Part shown: piece by piece, positions 13,178 to 21,121 of the stretch
How the letters are laid out: each line of letters starts with the position of its first letter
Numbering within the stretch: position 1 is the first letter of the stretch
NCBI RefSeq assembly: GCF_003334335.1
Contig: NZ_QOWQ01000001.1
Strand: one strand, 5' to 3'
Source: Escherichia coli
GTDB taxonomy: Bacteria > Pseudomonadota > Gammaproteobacteria > Enterobacterales > Enterobacteriaceae
Length of the DNA stretch: 64,000 bases
Notes under the pieces: generated by a model
Told to the model about the DNA's origin: nothing
The model's input: only the letters and a program-made list of their open reading frames with translations
Databases searched by the model: none
Made by a program: the position numbers and the translations under genes

Positions 13178-15169
13178 ATGTCCTCACGTAAAGAGCTTGC
13201 CAATGCTATTCGTGCGCTGAGCATGGACGCAGTACAGAAAGCCAAATCCGGTCACCCGGGTGCCCCTATGGGTATGGCTGACATTGCCGAAGTCCTGTGG
13301 CGTGATTTCCTGAAACACAACCCGCAGAATCCGTCCTGGGCTGACCGTGACCGCTTCGTGCTGTCCAACGGCCACGGCTCCATGCTGATCTACAGCCTGC
13401 TGCACCTCACCGGTTACGATCTGCCGATGGAAGAACTGAAAAACTTCCGTCAGCTGCACTCTAAAACTCCGGGTCACCCGGAAGTGGGTTACACCGCTGG
13501 TGTGGAAACCACCACCGGTCCGCTGGGTCAGGGTATTGCCAACGCAGTCGGTATGGCGATTGCAGAAAAAACGCTGGCGGCGCAGTTTAACCGTCCGGGC
13601 CACGACATTGTCGACCATTACACCTACGCCTTCATGGGCGACGGCTGCATGATGGAAGGCATCTCCCACGAAGTTTGCTCTCTGGCGGGTACGCTGAAGC
13701 TGGGTAAACTGATTGCATTCTACGATGACAACGGTATTTCTATCGATGGTCACGTTGAAGGCTGGTTCACCGACGACACCGCAATGCGTTTCGAAGCTTA
13801 CGGCTGGCACGTTATTCGCGACATCGACGGTCATGACGCGGCATCTATCAAACGCGCAGTAGAAGAAGCGCGCGCAGTGACTGACAAACCTTCCCTGCTG
13901 ATGTGCAAAACCATCATCGGTTTCGGTTCCCCGAACAAAGCCGGTACCCACGACTCCCACGGTGCGCCGCTGGGCGACGCTGAAATTGCCCTGACCCGCG
14001 AACAACTGGGCTGGAAATATGCGCCGTTCGAAATCCCGTCTGAAATCTATGCTCAGTGGGATGCGAAAGAAGCAGGCCAGGCGAAAGAATCCGCATGGAA
14101 CGAGAAATTCGCTGCTTACGCGAAAGCTTATCCGCAGGAAGCCGCTGAATTTACCCGCCGTATGAAAGGCGAAATGCCGTCTGACTTCGACGCTAAAGCG
14201 AAAGAGTTCATCGCTAAACTGCAGGCTAATCCGGCGAAAATCGCCAGCCGTAAAGCGTCTCAGAATGCTATCGAAGCGTTCGGTCCGCTGTTGCCGGAAT
14301 TCCTCGGCGGTTCTGCTGACCTGGCGCCGTCTAACCTGACCCTGTGGTCTGGTTCTAAAGCAATCAACGAAGATGCTGCGGGTAACTACATCCACTACGG
14401 TGTTCGCGAGTTCGGTATGACCGCGATTGCTAACGGTATCTCCCTGCACGGTGGCTTCCTGCCGTACACCTCCACCTTCCTGATGTTCGTGGAATACGCA
14501 CGTAACGCCGTACGTATGGCTGCGCTGATGAAACAGCGTCAGGTGATGGTTTACACCCACGACTCCATCGGTCTGGGCGAAGACGGCCCGACTCACCAGC
14601 CGGTTGAGCAGGTCGCTTCTCTGCGCGTAACCCCGAACATGTCTACATGGCGTCCGTGTGACCAGGTTGAATCCGCGGTCGCGTGGAAATACGGTGTTGA
14701 GCGTCAGGACGGCCCGACCGCACTGATCCTCTCCCGTCAGAACCTGGCGCAGCAGGAACGAACTGAAGAGCAACTGGCAAACATCGCGCGCGGTGGTTAT
14801 GTGCTGAAAGACTGCGCCGGTCAGCCGGAACTGATTTTCATCGCTACCGGTTCAGAAGTTGAACTGGCTGTTGCTGCCTACGAAAAACTGACTGCCGAAG
14901 GCGTGAAAGCGCGCGTGGTGTCCATGCCGTCTACCGACGCATTTGACAAGCAGGATGCTGCTTACCGTGAATCCGTACTGCCGAAAGCGGTTACTGCACG
15001 CGTTGCTGTAGAAGCGGGTATTGCTGACTACTGGTACAAGTATGTTGGCCTGAACGGTGCTATCGTCGGTATGACCACCTTCGGTGAATCTGCTCCGGCA
15101 GAGCTGCTGTTTGAAGAGTTCGGCTTCACTGTTGATAACGTTGTTGCGAAAGCAAAAGAACTGCTGTAA
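13178..15169 (+). CDS. tktA: Transketolase 1, 663 aa
   Basis: ORF 13148..15169 trimmed to [19 protein letters not shown]; TPP-binding motifs. Confidence 0.97.
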
Positions 15170-15183
15170 TTAGCATTTCGGGT

Positions 15184-15212
15184 AAAAAGGTCGCTTCGGC
15201 GACCTTTTTTAT
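15184..15212 (+). terminator. Rho-independent terminator of tktA
   Basis: ggtcgc-ttcg-gcgacc stem-loop followed by tttttt. Confidence 0.8.
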
Positions 15213-15482
15213 TACCTTGATATGTCCGTTTGCGGACAAGCAATAGATAAGGCGTGTTGTAGATCACAAATATTTATATGCAATAAATATCAATTATGTA
15301 ATATGCATCACGATATGCGTATTGACATTTGTTGTTATATCTATAACTCAATGTTATATAAGAAATTAATAATTCACTGTTTTCAAAACACCGGTTTCCC
15401 TGCTCAATTGCTTTCATTAAACCGCACGAGTATTTTATTTTTACCGCCGGACGGTACCCTAAAAATAAAATAAGGATAATTT

Positions 15483-15926
15483 ATGCGGCTTAGTGATTAT
15501 TTTCCAGAATCATCAATCTCAGTTATACATTCAGCAAAAGATTGGCAGGAAGCTATCGATTTCTCGATGGTATCATTGCTGGATAAAAACTATATCAGCG
15601 AGAATTACATTCAGGCAATTAAAGATTCCACCATTAACAATGGCCCTTATTATATTCTCGCACCAGGCGTGGCAATGCCTCATGCGCGACCGGAATGTGG
15701 GGCGCTTAAAACCGGGATGTCTTTGACATTACTTGAACAAGGTGTTTATTTTCCGGGGAATGACGAACCAATTAAATTACTCATCGGACTCTCTGCTGCC
15801 GATGCCGATTCGCACATTGGCGCTATTCAGGCGTTAAGTGAATTACTGTGCGAAGAAGAAATACTCGAACAACTCTTAACAGCATCATCAGAAAAACAAT
15901 TAGCGGACATTATCAGCCGCGGATAA
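15483..15926 (+). CDS. cmtB: PTS EIIA component, mannitol-family (cryptic), 147 aa
   Basis: Full ORF; PTS EIIA(Mtl/Fru)-like sequence with the phospho-acceptor His region (PHARPECG). Confidence 0.9.
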   Translation: MRLSDYFPESSISVIHSAKDWQEAIDFSMVSLLDKNYISENYIQAIKDSTINNGPYYILAPGVAMPHARPECGALKTGMSLTLLEQGVYFPGNDEPIKLLIGLSAADADSHIGAIQALSELLCEEEILEQLLTASSEKQLADIISRG

Positions 15927-15953
15927 TTACTCTCTCCTCTACAGGATAATATT

Positions 15954-17342
15954 ATGGAAAACAAGTCTGCTCGTGCAAAGGTCCAGGCTTTTGGGGGCTT
16001 TTTGACTGCAATGGTCATCCCCAATATTGGTGCTTTTATTGCCTGGGGTTTTATTACTGCGTTATTTATTCCCACCGGTTGGCTGCCTAACGAACATTTC
16101 GCCAAAATTGTCGGCCCGATGATTACCTATTTATTGCCCGTGATGATTGGTTCTACAGGTGGTCATCTGGTCGGCGGTAAACGCGGGGCGGTCATGGGCG
16201 GAATAGGTACTATTGGTGTGATCGTTGGCGCAGAGATCCCGATGTTCCTTGGCTCAATGATCATGGGGCCGCTCGGTGGGTTGGTCATAAAATATGTCGA
16301 TAAGGCACTGGAAAAACGCATACCTGCCGGTTTTGAGATGGTTATCAATAACTTCTCATTAGGTATCGCGGGGATGCTCCTTTGTCTGCTGGGTTTTGAA
16401 GTTATCGGCCCGGCGGTGTTAATTGCCAATACTTTCGTCAAAGAGTGTATTGAGGCGCTGGTACATGCGGGTTATCTGCCATTGTTGTCAGTCATCAATG
16501 AACCGGCGAAAGTGCTTTTCCTCAATAATGCGATCGATCAGGGCGTCTATTATCCGCTGGGAATGCAACAGGCTTCGGTTAACGGTAAATCCATCTTCTT
16601 TATGGTGGCCTCTAACCCAGGTCCGGGCCTGGGGCTGCTGCTGGCGTTTACCTTGTTTGGTAAAGGGATGAGTAAACGTTCTGCGCCCGGGGCGATGATT
16701 ATTCACTTCCTCGGTGGGATCCACGAACTGTATTTCCCGTATGTGCTGATGAAGCCGCTGACCATTATTGCCATGATTGCGGGCGGTATGTCTGGCACCT
16801 GGATGTTTAACTTACTGGACGGTGGTCTGGTGGCTGGCCCAAGTCCGGGGTCTATCTTTGCTTACCTGGCACTGACGCCGAAAGGCTCGTTCTTGGCGAC
16901 AATTGCCGGTGTTACGGTAGGTACCCTGGTGTCCTTTGCTATTACTTCGCTGATACTGAAGATGGAAAAAACGGTGGAAACGGAGAGCGAAGATGAGTTT
17001 GCTCAGTCAGCCAATGCGGTTAAGGCGATGAAACAAGAGGGTGCATTCTCGTTAAGCAGGGTTAAGCGTATCGCCTTTGTTTGCGATGCGGGGATGGGCT
17101 CCAGTGCGATGGGCGCGACCACCTTCCGTAAACGCCTGGAAAAAGCGGGGCTGGCAATTGAAGTAAAACATTACGCCATAGAAAACGTGCCTGCGGATGC
17201 GGATATCGTCGTTACTCATGCCAGTCTGGAAGGGCGCGTGAAACGTGTGACGGATAAACCACTGATATTGATTAATAACTATATTGGCGATCCAAAACTC
17301 GACACTTTATTTAATCAATTAACCGCCGAACATAAACACTGA
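15954..17342 (+). CDS. cmtA: PTS EIICB component, mannitol-family (cryptic), 462 aa
   Basis: Full ORF; polytopic membrane EIIC domain plus C-terminal EIIB with CDAGMGSS phospho-Cys motif. Confidence 0.9.
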   Translation: MENKSARAKVQAFGGFLTAMVIPNIGAFIAWGFITALFIPTGWLPNEHFAKIVGPMITYLLPVMIGSTGGHLVGGKRGAVMGGIGTIGVIVGAEIPMFLGSMIMGPLGGLVIKYVDKALEKRIPAGFEMVINNFSLGIAGMLLCLLGFEVIGPAVLIANTFVKECIEALVHAGYLPLLSVINEPAKVLFLNNAIDQGVYYPLGMQQASVNGKSIFFMVASNPGPGLGLLLAFTLFGKGMSKRSAPGAMIIHFLGGIHELYFPYVLMKPLTIIAMIAGGMSGTWMFNLLDGGLVAGPSPGSIFAYLALTPKGSFLATIAGVTVGTLVSFAITSLILKMEKTVETESEDEFAQSANAVKAMKQEGAFSLSRVKRIAFVCDAGMGSSAMGATTFRKRLEKAGLAIEVKHYAIENVPADADIVVTHASLEGRVKRVTDKPLILINNYIGDPKLDTLFNQLTAEHKH

Positions 17343-17356
17343 TTACAGAGGTAAAA

Positions 17357-18634
17357 ATGAAAACCAAAGTTGCTGCTATTTATGGCAAGCGGGATGTCCG
17401 TCTGCGCGTATTTGAACTGCCAGAAATTACCGATAATGAATTACTGGTGAGTGTAATTTCTGACAGCGTCTGTTTATCGACCTGGAAAGCGGCGTTACTC
17501 GGTAGTGAACATAAACGCGTACCCGACGATTTAGAAAATCATCCGGTCATTACCGGGCATGAATGTGCCGGGGTTATTGTCGAAGTGGGTAAAAATCTCA
17601 CTGGCAAATATAAAAAAGGCCAGCGTTTTGTATTGCAACCGGCGATGGGGTTACCAAGCGGATATTCAGCGGGCTACAGCTACGAATATTTTGGCGGCAA
17701 TGCCACTTATATGATTATTCCCGAAATCGCCATTAATTTGGGCTGCGTATTACCGTATCACGGCTCTTATTTTGCTGCGGCGTCGCTGGCAGAGCCTATG
17801 TGCTGCATTATTGGTGCTTATCATGCCAATTATCACACCACGCAATATGTTTATGAGCATCGCATGGGCGTCAAACCTGGCGGCAATATTGCACTGCTGG
17901 CGTGTGCAGGTCCGATGGGCATTGGCGCTATCGATTACGCCATTAACGGCGGCATACAACCGTCGCGGGTGGTGGTGGTCGATATCGACGACAAACGTCT
18001 GGCGCAGGTACAGAAGCTGCTGCCGGTGGAACTGGCGGCCAGTAAAGGCATTGAGCTGGTGTATGTGAATACCAAAGGGATGAGCGATCCTGTCCAGATG
18101 CTGCGGGCGCTGACAGGAGATGCCGGGTTCGATGACATTTTTGTTTATGCGGCGGTGCCTGCTGTCGTTGAGATGGCTGATGAATTACTGGCGGAAGATG
18201 GCTGTCTGAACTTCTTTGCCGGGCCGACGGATAAAAACTTCAAAGTGCCGTTTAATTTCTACAACGTCCATTACAACAGCACGCACGTCGTCGGTACATC
18301 TGGCGGTTCAACGGACGACATGAAAGAGGCGATTGCCCTTAGCGCCACTGGGCAGTTACAGCCGTCGTTTATGGTGACCCATATCGGTGGCCTGGATGCG
18401 GTGCCAGAAACCGTGCTCAATCTGCCGGATATCCCTGGCGGTAAAAAACTCATTTATAACGGCGTGACCATGCCGCTCACTGCCATTGCCGATTTTGCCG
18501 AAAAAGGCAAAACCGATCCGCTGTTTAAAGAGTTGGCGCGGCTGGTTGAGGAAACGCACGGCATCTGGAATGAACAGGCCGAGAAATATCTGCTGGCACA
18601 ATTTGGCGTTGATATCGGGGAGGCCGCGCAATGA
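17357..18634 (+). CDS. yggP: Zinc-dependent medium-chain dehydrogenase/reductase-like protein, 425 aa
   Basis: Full ORF; MDR-like motifs (GHECAG); stop overlaps the yggF start. Confidence 0.85.
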   Translation: MKTKVAAIYGKRDVRLRVFELPEITDNELLVSVISDSVCLSTWKAALLGSEHKRVPDDLENHPVITGHECAGVIVEVGKNLTGKYKKGQRFVLQPAMGLPSGYSAGYSYEYFGGNATYMIIPEIAINLGCVLPYHGSYFAAASLAEPMCCIIGAYHANYHTTQYVYEHRMGVKPGGNIALLACAGPMGIGAIDYAINGGIQPSRVVVVDIDDKRLAQVQKLLPVELAASKGIELVYVNTKGMSDPVQMLRALTGDAGFDDIFVYAAVPAVVEMADELLAEDGCLNFFAGPTDKNFKVPFNFYNVHYNSTHVVGTSGGSTDDMKEAIALSATGQLQPSFMVTHIGGLDAVPETVLNLPDIPGGKKLIYNGVTMPLTAIADFAEKGKTDPLFKELARLVEETHGIWNEQAEKYLLAQFGVDIGEAAQ

Positions 18635-19596
18635 TGTCCCTGGCGTGGCCATTATTTCGCGTTACGGAACAGGCAGCGTTGGCTGCCTGGCCGCAAACCG
18701 GATGTGGCGACAAAAATAAAATTGATGGCCTGGCGGTCACCGCGATGCGCCAGGCATTAAACGACGTCGCTTTTCGTGGACGAGTGGTTATCGGCGAAGG
18801 AGAAATTGACCATGCGCCGATGCTGTGGATTGGCGAAGAGGTGGGCAAAGGCGATGGGCCAGAAGTCGATATCGCGGTTGATCCCATTGAAGGCACGCGG
18901 ATGGTGGCGATGGGGCAGAGCAATGCGCTGGCGGTCATGGCTTTCGCCCCTCGAGATAGCCTGTTACATGCGCCCGATATGTATATGAAAAAGCTGGTTG
19001 TTAATCGGCTGGCGGCGGGCGCGATTGATCTGTCTTTGCCTCTGACGGACAACCTGCGCAACGTGGCGAAAGCGTTAGGCAAACCGCTGGATAAGCTGCG
19101 CATGGTTACGCTGGATAAACCGCGCCTGAGTGCCGCGATTGAGGAAGCAACACAGCTGGGCGTGAAGGTTTTTGCCCTGCCGGATGGCGATGTCGCCGCC
19201 AGCGTGCTGACCTGCTGGCAGGATAATCCTTACGATGTGATGTACACCATCGGCGGTGCGCCAGAAGGCGTGATTTCTGCCTGTGCCGTTAAAGCATTAG
19301 GCGGGGATATGCAGGCCGAGCTGATTGACTTTTGCCAGGCTAAAGGGGATTACACGGAAAATCGGCAGATTGCAGAGCAGGAGCGCAAGCGTTGCAAGGC
19401 AATGGGCGTTGACGTTAACCGTGTGTACTCGCTCGATGAACTGGTGAGGGGGAACGATATCCTCTTTAGCGCTACGGGCGTGACGGGCGGTGAGCTGGTG
19501 AACGGTATCCAACAGACGGCGAATGGGGTGCGGACGCAGACATTACTGATCGGCGGCGCGGACCAAACGTGTAATATAATAGACTCCCTGCATTGA
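18631..19596 (+). CDS. yggF: Fructose-1,6-bisphosphatase class II (GlpX paralogue), 321 aa
   Basis: Full ORF recognised as GlpX-like FBPase. Confidence 0.9.
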   Translation: MMSLAWPLFRVTEQAALAAWPQTGCGDKNKIDGLAVTAMRQALNDVAFRGRVVIGEGEIDHAPMLWIGEEVGKGDGPEVDIAVDPIEGTRMVAMGQSNALAVMAFAPRDSLLHAPDMYMKKLVVNRLAAGAIDLSLPLTDNLRNVAKALGKPLDKLRMVTLDKPRLSAAIEEATQLGVKVFALPDGDVAASVLTCWQDNPYDVMYTIGGAPEGVISACAVKALGGDMQAELIDFCQAKGDYTENRQIAEQERKRCKAMGVDVNRVYSLDELVRGNDILFSATGVTGGELVNGIQQTANGVRTQTLLIGGADQTCNIIDSLH

Positions 19597-19617
19597 TGGT
19601 GATCTATCGGAAGACCA

Positions 19618-20127
19618 ATGGCGACGCTGACAGAAGATGATGTGCTTGAGCAACTGGATGCACAGGACAATTTATTTTCATTTATGAAAACTGCGCATAC
19701 CATTTTGCTCCAGGGGATACGCCAGTTTCTGCCGTCGCTGTTTGTCGATAACGATGAAGAGATCGTGGAATATGCAGTGAAGCCGTTACTCGCCCAAAGC
19801 GGCCCGCTTGACGATATTGATGTTGCACTGCGTTTGATTTATGCGTTGGGGAAAATGGATAAATGGTTGTACGCCGATATCACGCATTTTTCCCAGTTCT
19901 GGCATTACCTGAACGAACAGGATGAAACGCCCGGATTTGCCGATGACATGACCTGGGATTTTATCAGCAACGTCAATAGCATAACCCGCAATGCGATGCT
20001 CTATGACGCGTTAAAAGCGATGAAGTTCGCTGATTTCTCCGTCTGGTCAGAGGCGCGTTTTAGCGGAATGGTCAAAACGGCGCTGACGCTGGCAGTAACG
20101 ACCACCTTAAAGGAATTAACGCCGTGA
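19618..20127 (+). CDS. yggD: MtlR-like (mannitol operon repressor family) protein, 169 aa
   Basis: Full ORF; small acidic helical protein resembling MtlR; stop overlaps the yggC start. Confidence 0.8.
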   Translation: MATLTEDDVLEQLDAQDNLFSFMKTAHTILLQGIRQFLPSLFVDNDEEIVEYAVKPLLAQSGPLDDIDVALRLIYALGKMDKWLYADITHFSQFWHYLNEQDETPGFADDMTWDFISNVNSITRNAMLYDALKAMKFADFSVWSEARFSGMVKTALTLAVTTTLKELTP

Positions 20128-20837
20128 AAATTGAATTAACGGTGAATGGGCTGAAGATACAGGCACAGTACCAGAACGAAGAGATTGAAAATGTACATAA
20201 ACCGTTGCTGCACATGTTGGCGGCCTTACAGACGGTAAATCCGCAGCGGCGTACGGTGGTTTTTCTTTGCGCTCCGCCGGGGACGGGTAAATCAACCCTA
20301 ACCACCTTCTGGGAATATCTCGCGCAACAAGACCCGGAACTGCCCGCTATTCAGACGCTCCCGATGGATGGTTTTCACCATTACAATAGCTGGCTGGATG
20401 CGCATCAATTGCGCCCCTTCAAAGGCGCACCAGAGACATTTGACGTTGCGAAACTGACGGAAAATCTGCGCCAGGTCGTGGAAGGGGATTGTACGTGGCC
20501 GCAGTACGATCGACAAAAGCATGATCCTGTTGAAGATGCGTTGCACGTTACCGCACCACTCGTCATCGTCGAAGGAAACTGGTTGTTACTGGATGATGAA
20601 AAGTGGCTGGAGTTGGCATCTTTCTGCGATTTTTCTATTTTTATTCATGCACCTGCTCAAATTCTGCGGGAGCGCTTGATTAGTCGTAAAATTGCGGGAG
20701 GATTAACGCGGCAAGTAGCCGAAGCATTTTATGCCCGCACCGATGGCCCCAATGTCGAGCGTGTGCTGATGAATAGCCGTCAGGCCAATCTGATAGTAGA
20801 GATGACTGAAGAAGGCCGGTATCACTTCACAAGCTGA
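20124..20837 (+). CDS. yggC: P-loop nucleoside/sugar kinase-like protein, 237 aa
   Basis: Full ORF; Walker A APPGTGKST. Confidence 0.85.
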   Translation: MKIELTVNGLKIQAQYQNEEIENVHKPLLHMLAALQTVNPQRRTVVFLCAPPGTGKSTLTTFWEYLAQQDPELPAIQTLPMDGFHHYNSWLDAHQLRPFKGAPETFDVAKLTENLRQVVEGDCTWPQYDRQKHDPVEDALHVTAPLVIVEGNWLLLDDEKWLELASFCDFSIFIHAPAQILRERLISRKIAGGLTRQVAEAFYARTDGPNVERVLMNSRQANLIVEMTEEGRYHFTS

Positions 20838-20984
20838 CAATTTATTCCAGTTATTGTAGGGTTATTATTACGCCAGCCTGGAATAAAGCTTCCCACAAAA
20901 GGGGATAAAAGTGTGATGTGAGTCAGATAAATGTCTTCTTCGGCTGGACAAACATTCCTTTTATTCCACGTTTCGCTTATCCTA

Positions 20985-21001
20985 GCTGAAGCGTTTCAGT
21001 C
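20985..21001. promoter_or_regulatory. Cra (FruR)-type operator-like palindrome upstream of epd
   Basis: gctgaagcgtttcagtc fits the TGAA-N-TTCA Cra half-site arrangement, about 120 bp upstream of the epd ATG. Confidence 0.4.
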
Positions 21002-21121
21002 GATTAAATGTTCGACAATTAACCAATCAGTCGCAGTTTGCGACAGGTAAGGTTTCCCCGGACGATTTGCTGGATTACTCTGTCTGGCAAATTTGCTCAG
21101 GGAAAACCTTGCAGGAGATCT

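Follow-up and report, generated by a model that had tools for sequence, protein, structure and literature searches.

What is the function of the six-gene cluster cmtB-cmtA-yggP-yggF-yggD-yggC, which lies at positions 15483-20837 of the window (the whole 64,000-nucleotide (nt) stretch of the Escherichia coli chromosome analysed here)? The six genes have been annotated since the 1990s, and an earlier note on this DNA, the finding of which is largely a correct restatement of known annotation, regarded them as one uptake-and-catabolism module whose substrate is not firmly established. The latter point was upheld by a literature search on the cmt-ygg genes, fumE, frcK and sorbose-1-phosphate reductase, which yielded no paper defining the substrate of the cluster. 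The reading developed below, which we hold with about even confidence, is that the six genes constitute one CRP-activated catabolic operon for a mannitol-like polyol transported by a phosphotransferase system (PTS). The genes, all of which were found as open reading frames (ORFs) on the + strand, are as follows.

cmtB, 15483-15926, + strand: 147 amino acids (aa); PTS enzyme IIA (EIIA) of the mannitol/fructose type
cmtA, 15954-17342, + strand: 462 aa; PTS EIICB of the mannitol family
yggP, 17357-18634, + strand: 425 aa; Zn-dependent medium-chain dehydrogenase/reductase (MDR) of the SorE (L-sorbose-1-phosphate reductase) family
yggF, 18631-19596, + strand: 321 aa; paralogue of class II (GlpX-type) fructose-1,6-bisphosphatase (FBPase)
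yggD, 19618-20127, + strand: 169 aa; RefSeq name fumE; MtlR-family protein, probable regulator of the operon
yggC, 20124-20837, + strand: 237 aa, GTG start; P-loop kinase of the FrcK / COG1072 family (PRK-uridine kinase-PanK superfamily)

All six coordinates agree with those that RefSeq gives for an E. coli genome of 100% identity, in which the order is tkt, cmtB, cmtA, yggP, glpX (the yggF paralogue), fumE (yggD), yggC and epd-pgk-fbaA, the product of yggC being named 'nucleoside/nucleotide kinase family'. From cmtB to yggC the junctions measure 27, 14, -4 (ATGA), 21 and -4 (GTGA) nt, which confirms the co-directional genes, short gaps and two 4-nt overlaps (yggP/yggF and yggD/yggC) described in the earlier note, and a Shine-Dalgarno-like sequence lies 5' of each of the six start codons. 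In a consensus scan none of the intergenic junctions contained a terminator-like site; the matches within the cluster all fall inside coding sequence (6 found against 7.3 expected from shuffles), and internal terminators and promoters proposed by such scans were rejected, their counts being at or below shuffle expectation with none at a gene junction. No Rfam family scored above threshold. At the sequence level the cluster thus has the co-directional genes, short or overlapping junctions, lack of internal terminators and conserved order of a single operon.

The region 15100-20950 (5.85 kb) is 100% identical to that of strains M217 and ECO11 and was matched in 5426 of 5426 complete E. coli genomes, with at least 80% of the stretch covered in 5387 of them. 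When E. coli was compared with E. albertii, Citrobacter, Salmonella, Raoultella and Enterobacter, the ratio of nonsynonymous to synonymous substitution rates (dN/dS) was 0.02-0.16 for every gene of the cluster; because of these values the six genes, judged from their sequences, are under purifying selection, and are maintained and functional as opposed to a decaying remnant.

The genome context of the cluster was compared across 84 loci centred on homologues of YggP, with a single genome for most species, drawn from the Enterobacterales, Vibrionaceae and Clostridia, in which E. coli proteins and extra queries were mapped to ORFs. YggP was accompanied by a mannitol-type EIIA, an EIICB and YggC in 81 of the 84 loci, the other three being truncated or broken contigs, so that the linkage was found in all 81 complete loci. 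The full order cmtB-cmtA-yggP-yggF-yggD-yggC was present in 48 of the 84; its carriers include Escherichia, Citrobacter, Salmonella arizonae and diarizonae, Raoultella, genera of the Enterobacter group and Buttiauxella, together with Yersinia frederiksenii, Serratia, Hafnia (where the block lies between menF and menD, a different chromosomal site), Providencia and Limnobaculum. The 18 Vibrionaceae loci have cmtB-cmtA-yggP-yggD-yggC followed by a YcdX-like PHP phosphoesterase (NF006702, 357 bits) which replaces YggF, and the six loci from Rahnella and Budvicia are without a clustered phosphatase. The nine clostridial loci, from Hungatella/Lacrimispora, Garciella, Butyricicoccus, Blautia, Hespellia, Anaerotalea and metagenome-assembled genomes, hold only EIIA-YggC-EIICB-YggP as overlapping genes, plus a PRD regulator of ~690 residues with an EIIA-like C-terminal domain. 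A pyrophosphate (PPi)-dependent phosphofructokinase (NF010675, 483-504 bits) stands beside the module in three of the nine; as two of these three loci are near-identical, this is weak support and the enzyme was not accepted as a member of the clostridial module.

As the six-gene order recurs in 48 of the 84 loci and the four-gene core in 81, the arrangement is not due to chance. The view of the cluster as one functional module therefore gains from synteny conserved in three bacterial lineages, and it is refined in one respect: EIIA, EIICB, YggP and YggC are the invariant core, whilst YggF and YggD are lineage-specific accessories.

Two genera of this set have neighbours of their own. In Rahnella (L050-L054 in our numbering of the loci) the cmt cluster, without yggF, lies directly upstream of genes for an MtlA-like EIICBA and an MtlR-like protein, which lie ~1.4 kb past yggC, and Rahnella thus has two mannitol-type systems side by side. 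In Garciella (L064, 556-4801) a gat-like hexitol cluster, comprising EIIC-Gat, a GatD-like dehydrogenase, a PfkB hexose kinase and a GatY-like ketose-bisphosphate aldolase, is found immediately upstream of the EIIA-YggC-EIICB-YggP module, with the regulator of the module divergent between the two.

The family assignments of the proteins, made with NCBIfam models with curated cut-offs and with sequence searches of the PDB, agree with the gene identities proposed earlier. In NCBIfam and the PDB, the only matches of YggP were weak ones, to Zn alcohol and polyol dehydrogenases of a generic kind. A translated search against annotated plasmids showed it to be 45.8% identical, over 98% of its length, to Klebsiella pneumoniae SorE, encoded there in a canonical sorC-sorD-sorFBAM-sorE operon, and 42% identical to a homologue in the sor cluster of Lactiplantibacillus (L. 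plantarum). The joint alignment of YggP and SorE has invariant catalytic Zn ligands (C39, H68, E69 and E146), an invariant G185-P-M-G188 and an invariant D209, and a C-terminal extension of ~70 residues is common to both proteins; there are no structural-zinc cysteines, and the loop at 95-112 differs between the two clades. SorE interconverts L-sorbose-1-phosphate and D-sorbitol-6-phosphate (PMC12817954) and from this pair of substrates it follows that it acts on the carbon adjoining the phosphate ester. The position of D209 after the second beta-strand suggests the use of NAD+, which would fit a catabolic, oxidative direction for YggP, although SorE has D209 too. Inside the contiguous cluster, a gene matching a sorbose (mannose-family) PTS or a sorbitol-6-phosphate dehydrogenase was found in none of the 81 complete loci; as YggP always occurs with a mannitol-type EII and YggC, it represents a sister subfamily of SorE and not SorE itself. 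The linkage of YggP to YggC is already flagged in the database name 'oxidoreductase linked to yggC' and is present in a SEED subsystem (PMC3223725).

YggC matches NF006742 with 504 bits against a cut-off of 402 and has the motif GTGKST in its translation. Its nearest structure is 3c8u (E = 4.6e-21; deposited as 'fructokinase', FrcK-like), followed by PanK structures, and its family was listed as a predicted 'sugar/polyol kinase', as work in progress, in a comparative-genomics survey of 2011 (PMC3223725). A tblastn search of annotated plasmids provided eight plasmid-borne relatives for examination, of which seven stand in polyol or ketose clusters. The contexts of these relatives are the following.

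Deinococcus: sugar ABC transporter, kinase, mannitol-dehydrogenase-family protein and further dehydrogenases
Arthrobacter: ABC transporter, MDR dehydrogenase, kinase and mannitol-dehydrogenase-family protein
Phyllobacterium: frc-like ABC transporter, D-lyxose/D-mannose isomerase and kinase
Palleronia: ABC transporter, PfkB kinase, GatZ-like protein, kinase and short-chain dehydrogenase/reductase
Marinovum (L093, 4920-6554) and Bartonella sp. (L095, 4938-6611): FrcK/YggC-family kinase directly followed by transaldolase, on alphaproteobacterial plasmids
Sinorhizobium meliloti: frcBCAK

In Arthrobacter the start of the kinase gene overlaps the stop of the MDR dehydrogenase gene by one base, and no other kinase was present within the 5-kb flanks read. 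Because relatives recur just after an enzyme which forms a free ketose, the context suggests that the FrcK/YggC family phosphorylates fructose-like ketoses.

With regard to the transporter, CmtB matches NF007358 with 326 bits against a cut-off of 192, and also weakly matches fructose EIIA models; the EIIA histidine motif GVAMPHA is present in its translation. CmtA passes the mannitol cut-offs narrowly (TIGR00851, 480 against 468.4; NF011663, 592.9 against 589) and is 51-52% identical to Rahnella MtlA, and its EIIB motif VCDAGMGSS aligns with the MtlA IIB domain 1vkr. The residues of the phosphorelay, namely the EIIB cysteine and the EIIA histidine, are intact in the predicted CmtAB proteins. 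The PDB search found no solved EIIC(Mtl) structure with which binding residues could be compared, only IIB domains having been solved.

YggF is a clear member of its family (TIGR00330, 588 bits against 259; E = 5e-111 to the GlpX structure 1ni9) and is credited with FBPase activity in vitro (Brown et al. 2009, as cited in PMC8719807). YggD matches NF007455 with 333 bits against 167, its matches being confined to MtlR-family models, and scores too low for the model of the narrower MltR subfamily (89, cut-off 149). Its Shigella orthologue is the structure 3c8g, of which the MtlR structures 6kcr and 3brj are relatives, and PF05068 is recorded on its orthologues. No match of YggD to a class I or class II fumarase or to a lyase family was found in NCBIfam, yet RefSeq calls it 'fumarase E', a label which rests on a reported in vitro activity and not on family membership. 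YggD is present in every gammaproteobacterial cluster, and in the Clostridia its slot is taken by the PRD/EIIA regulator; it is a probable MtlR-like regulator of the operon.

Upstream of cmtB the unit is bounded by the terminator of tktA, and the features read from the sequence or predicted between it and cmtB are listed below.

tktA intrinsic terminator, 15184-15211, + strand: AAAAAGGTCGC-TTCG-GCGACCTTTTT, read from the sequence; upstream boundary of the unit
cmtB leader/promoter region, 15212-15482, + strand: 33% G+C (GC), ~270 nt after the tktA terminator
CRP-like site 1 (predicted), 15253-15268, no strand assigned: CGTGTTGTAGATCACA, 8/10 to TGTGA-N6-TCACA
CRP-like site 2 (predicted), 15297-15312, no strand assigned: TGTAATATGCATCACG, 8/10 to the same consensus, 44 bp from site 1
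candidate sigma-70 promoter, 15408-15436, + strand: -35 TTGCTT, 17-nt spacer, -10 TATTTT

The 313-nt spacer between the tktA stop codon and cmtB has a GC content of 32.9%, against 42-57% in the genes, and this AT-richness had been taken as a sign that the cluster is silenced under standard conditions. Silencing is not borne out. A cmtB promoter-lacZ fusion is active and loses its activity in a crp mutant (PMC3105977); a PcmtA fusion to green fluorescent protein (PcmtA-GFP) is likewise active and under CRP control, and deletion of cmtA raises the tobramycin minimum inhibitory concentration (MIC) in ordinary medium (PMC12412646); and in enterohaemorrhagic E. coli bovine gut contents raise cmtB 4-8 fold over its level in M9-glucose (PMC6199705). 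In addition, when leaders from 15 genera of the Enterobacteriaceae were aligned, features conserved across genera became visible, namely the tktA terminator, the two CRP-like sites, the -35/-10 block and an A-rich stretch up to the Shine-Dalgarno sequence. The stem and T-run of the terminator are kept in 14 genera in a multi-genus alignment; at the position of site 1 most other genera read GTGAT-N5-ATCACA, and the ATCAC(A/G) half-site of site 2 is conserved. The candidate promoter is the most conserved block of the leader in the Enterobacteriaceae, with the pattern (A/T)TTG(A/C)TTT..N..GTATTTT(A/G)TTTT. Both CRP-like sites would act in CRP binding, and the block at 15408-15436 may be a sigma-70 promoter. 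Given the CRP-dependent active fusions, the effect on tobramycin MIC and the induction in gut contents, the leader is AT-rich as a promoter region, and the cluster is not silent, its expression being low and catabolite-sensitive.

Other features of the leader were also considered. A 13-nt perfect inverted repeat, TATTTTATTTTTA ... TAAAAATAAAATA, at 15431-15472 encloses a short, variable hairpin just ahead of the Shine-Dalgarno sequence of cmtB, and both of its arms are conserved in sequence across the Enterobacteriaceae. A leader RNA element formed from these arms and the inner hairpin was rejected: its folding is no better than that of shuffles (z = -0.2), RNAalifold on 18 genera predicts zero pairs, and no Rfam family exceeds threshold. 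The lack of support for an RNA fold led us to regard the conserved blocks as DNA-level promoter or operator elements, and the repeat, which overlaps the putative -10 region, may act as an operator in the DNA. An 83-aa ORF at 15222-15473 was dismissed as spurious, since it is AT-rich and conservation is confined to short blocks of non-coding-like character. In E. albertii and some E. coli lineages (L006, L008, L009 and L011) the tktA-cmtB spacer has a length of ~1.5 kb and contains, on the opposite strand, an SPFH/prohibitin-like ORF of 305 aa (L006, 6838-7755, - strand). The strain of the window is without this ORF, so that the region immediately 5' of the cmtB promoter is polymorphic for its presence.

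Within Escherichia the two outer genes, cmtB and yggC, are far more divergent among lineages than the four inner genes. Amino acid identity between lineages is 81-91% for YggC and 94-99% for the products of the inner genes, the synonymous divergence (dS) to E. albertii is 0.81 for yggC against 0.10-0.53, E. coli YggC proteins form clusters at ~100, 95, 87, 83 and 80% identity, and the alignment of many E. coli genomes ends at ~20768. This pattern suggests old allelic lineages or recombination at the edges of the cluster. A fused YggD-YggC ORF (406 aa; PF05068 plus kinase) is called in a few assemblies (proteins P0121 and P0132), probably through a change at the GTGA overlap, and is consistent with tight translational coupling of yggD and yggC. 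The sequence CTGGCGGCAATATTGCA at 17877-17893 (+ strand), inside yggP, is the intragenic sigma-54 binding site IS35 mapped by Bonocora et al. 2015 (PMC4591121); it is in the sense orientation, 744 nt upstream of yggF, and occurs once in the window against zero expected by chance. Downstream, the spacer between yggC and epd (20838-21121; 284 nt, 42% GC), in which H-NS and a constitutive epd promoter have been marked (PMC3946193), has no terminator-like site after yggC, and read-through from yggC into epd-pgk-fbaA may occur.

How, then, might these proteins work together? CmtB and CmtA would import the polyol and phosphorylate a terminal hydroxyl to give a polyol-1-phosphate. YggP, as an NAD-type Zn dehydrogenase, would oxidise the carbon adjoining the phosphate ester, which is the SorE reaction reversed, to give a 2-ketose-1-phosphate. 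YggC, as a ketose kinase of the FrcK type, would then phosphorylate the far end to give a ketose-1,6-bisphosphate, in the simplest case fructose-1,6-bisphosphate (FBP), for cleavage by a housekeeping aldolase. YggF, the lineage-specific addition, would restore the supply of fructose-6-phosphate (F6P) for biosynthesis during growth on carbon that enters at the level of FBP or below it, in the manner of glpX in glpFKX, and YggD would serve as an MtlR-like specific regulator. We infer the order of the steps, the regiochemistry of YggP and YggC, the FBP product and the regulatory role of YggD from the following considerations. The clostridial minimum has one PTS, one dehydrogenase and one kinase, which suggests that central metabolism can be reached with no more than two phosphorylations and a single oxidation; a ketose bisphosphate, most simply FBP, would be the only common central metabolite to fit them. 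D-sorbitol-6-phosphate is the same compound as L-gulitol-1-phosphate, and on stereochemical grounds the SorE pair differs from mannitol-1-phosphate and fructose-1-phosphate only at C5; taken with the 46% identity of YggP to SorE and the 52% identity of CmtA to MtlA, this would make a mannitol-like polyol a natural substrate for YggP. The FBPase activity of YggF, its replacement by a PHP protein in the Vibrionaceae and the clostridial PPi-dependent phosphofructokinase point to the F6P/FBP node, the phosphofructokinase evidence being thin. That the four-gene core represents an undescribed route from polyol-1-phosphate through 2-ketose-1-phosphate to ketose-1,6-bisphosphate, common to the Enterobacterales, Vibrionaceae and gut Clostridia, is put forward more tentatively than the operon itself.

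Several points weigh against an operon for a mannitol-like polyol. The literature search found no substrate, inducer or enzyme activity for CmtAB, YggP or YggC. If fructose-1-phosphate were the intermediate, FruK could replace YggC, and the strict conservation of YggC despite FruK hints at a different ketose-phosphate; moreover, to our knowledge, E. coli mtlA and mtlD mutants are not rescued by the cmt-ygg cluster. A mannitol-dependent tolerance phenotype requires mtlA and not cmtA (PMC11656735). One compilation gives yggDC as a separate transcription unit (PMC3946193), and overexpression of Nac raises cmtA 5.75-fold and lowers yggP to 0.036-fold (PMC5217608), and for these two reasons the co-transcription of all six genes in K-12 is unproven. 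For the kinase family, a study of 2023 left the role of S. meliloti FrcK undefined and found that Frk, which FrcK does not replace, is the true fructokinase (PMC10433430). For YggD, an in vitro metabolomics study is cited as having reported fumarase activity, and chromatin immunoprecipitation with exonuclease treatment (ChIP-exo) gave no binding sites or peaks under the conditions used (PMC8464067).

When PcmtA-GFP was screened on 198 Biolog compounds (PM1, PM2B and PM3B) the top activators were uridine, bromo-succinate and inosine, with nucleosides (uridine, inosine, cytidine and others) the best, and a validated, sixfold induction was reported solely for uridine, mannitol being among the conditions tested (PMC12412646). 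In the same study uridine also turned on 13 other transporter promoters, so its effect looks general; as the promoter is moreover CRP-controlled, the idea of uridine as a specific inducer, tied to the 'uridine kinase' superfamily of YggC, was rejected. The response to nucleosides and the tandem CRP-like sites could reflect co-regulation of the CytR type. The three plates include common polyols, of which the text of the paper holds no list, and if these were indeed on the plates the actual inducer may be some rarer compound, or one that acts under other conditions.

Other explanations have to be set against the same evidence. One would be a redundant, 'cryptic' second system for D-mannitol, merely uninduced in K-12, in which mannitol-1-phosphate would pass through fructose-1-phosphate to FBP by way of YggP and YggC. 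RefSeq and recent papers call CmtA a mannitol PTS, and CmtA passes both the mannitol EIIC and IICBA cut-offs at ~52% identity to MtlA, but barely (480 against 468; 592.9 against 589); the pair mannitol-1-phosphate and fructose-1-phosphate are, by our own reasoning, the C5 epimers of the SorE pair, and the Rahnella cluster adjoins mtlA...mtlR. Against this stand the tolerance phenotype which needs mtlA, the screen in which mannitol was tested and validated induction came from uridine alone, the needlessness of a dedicated kinase where FruK exists and the strong purifying selection in hosts already equipped with mtlADR, which argues for a distinct substrate. We therefore regard a second mannitol system as unlikely, though not negligibly so. 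A less probable scheme reverses the direction of YggP: CmtAB would import a ketose as its 1-phosphate and YggP would reduce this to a hexitol-phosphate, as SorE does with sorbose, after which YggC and YggF would reposition the phosphate or feed housekeeping hexitol-phosphate dehydrogenases. The closest characterised relative of YggP is indeed a ketose-1-phosphate reductase, mannitol-family EIIs belong to the superfamily of the fructose EIIs, which make ketose-1-phosphates, and CmtB weakly matches fructose EIIA models. The transporter is nevertheless of the mannitol type and not of the fructose or mannose type, the cluster is without a second dehydrogenase equivalent to SorD, and the four-gene clostridial core would yield a hexitol-phosphate as its final product, and hexitol-phosphates are not central metabolites. 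In addition, the invariant D209 suggests NAD+ use and the oxidative direction, with the caveat that SorE has this residue too.

The phosphatase would become obligatory if the substrate were instead a pentitol or heptitol of mannitol-like configuration, such as D-arabitol or volemitol, which would be converted to xylulose-1,5-bisphosphate or sedoheptulose-1,7-bisphosphate for YggF or the PHP protein to act on as a 1-phosphatase feeding the pentose-phosphate pathway. A tkt gene adjoins the cluster in the Enterobacteriaceae and several Vibrio loci (L059, L061, L073, L076 and L083), some GlpX-type enzymes have dual FBPase and sedoheptulose-1,7-bisphosphatase activity (e.g., PDB 3roj), the superfamily of YggC includes phosphoribulokinase, and a phosphatase has been kept through non-orthologous replacement in two lineages. 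However, Rahnella, Budvicia and nine of nine clostridial loci are without a clustered phosphatase, and YggF hydrolyses FBP, as the citation of Brown et al. 2009 in PMC8719807 has it. The tkt...epd-pgk-fba neighbourhood may furthermore be mere ancestral synteny, the cluster being located elsewhere in Hafnia, Yersinia and Serratia, and a pentitol or heptitol appears improbable, slightly more so than ketose uptake. Finally, the genes could be unrelated neighbours (a spare FBPase, a fumarase, a nucleoside/nucleotide kinase and a dead PTS) or a decaying remnant, as the RefSeq names glpX, fumE and 'nucleoside/nucleotide kinase family', the FBPase and fumarase activities reported in vitro by the sources cited above, and the opposite responses of cmtA and yggP to Nac (PMC5217608) would allow. 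Such a view is strongly disfavoured, and we consider it very improbable indeed, as the core co-occurs in all 81 complete loci of three lineages with accessories swapped lineage by lineage, dN/dS is low throughout, the phosphorelay motifs are intact, start and stop codons overlap and YggD matches MtlR-family models only and no fumarase family.

A cluster which is present in every complete E. coli genome and under purifying selection, and for which the search found no paper assigning a substrate, marks a gap, small but real, in what is known of the best-studied bacterium. With the comparative data the question narrows to the action of YggP on pairs of polyol-1-phosphate and ketose-1-phosphate and of YggC on ketose-1-phosphates, and the hypothesis is sharpened to a four-gene core with a SorE-like polyol-1-phosphate 2-dehydrogenase and an FrcK-like ketose-1-phosphate kinase. 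If true, this would be the first defined biochemical function for the COG1072/FrcK kinase family, which is reported to include a plant homologue; six core y-genes of E. coli would gain a role as well, with consequences for the name 'fumarase E' given to YggD. The cluster also has some practical relevance: an influence of CmtAB on the uptake of aminoglycosides has been reported, and gut contents induce cmtB.

As a PTS operon for a sugar alcohol, the cmt-ygg cluster falls into the general class to which mtl, srl, gat and sor also belong, and it is the combination of genes, above all the use of a P-loop kinase of the FrcK type, which has not previously been characterised. In E. coli mtlADR (MtlA, EIICBA; MtlD, mannitol-1-phosphate 5-dehydrogenase; MtlR) there is likewise a mannitol-family EII, with the EIIB motif CDAGMGSS and ~52% identity between CmtA and MtlA, a small helical MtlR-family protein encoded in the operon and CRP-dependent expression. 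The cmt-ygg cluster differs in its separate EIIA and in having a SorE-type Zn MDR enzyme where MtlD belongs to the long-chain family, and it adds a P-loop kinase and an FBPase. With sorCDFBAME for L-sorbose in Klebsiella and E. coli, and its Lactobacillus counterpart, the likeness lies in the dehydrogenase, YggP and SorE being one family at 42-46% identity over their full length, each within a PTS operon; the sor operon, by contrast, has a mannose-family EII, a second dehydrogenase (SorD) and the regulator SorC, and neither a kinase nor a phosphatase.

The proposed logic resembles most closely that of fruBKA and of D-tagatose utilisation (PTS and TagK), where the C1-phosphate made by the PTS is phosphorylated at C6 and cleaved by an aldolase; in cmt-ygg the kinase is of the P-loop FrcK/COG1072 family and not of the PfkB family, and a dehydrogenase step would precede it. 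In glpFKX, as here, a GlpX-type FBPase is encoded in a CRP-controlled catabolic operon from which carbon would enter glycolysis below F6P, whereas YggF is a separate paralogue confined to the clusters of the Enterobacterales, with a PHP protein or nothing in its place elsewhere. In frcBCAK of S. meliloti, YggC has a relative of one kinase family (~37% identity by tblastn) which is also encoded by the last gene of a sugar-uptake operon, overlapping or closely following its neighbour; there the kinase is paired with an ABC transporter and free fructose instead of a PTS, the true fructokinase of that organism being Frk (PMC10433430).

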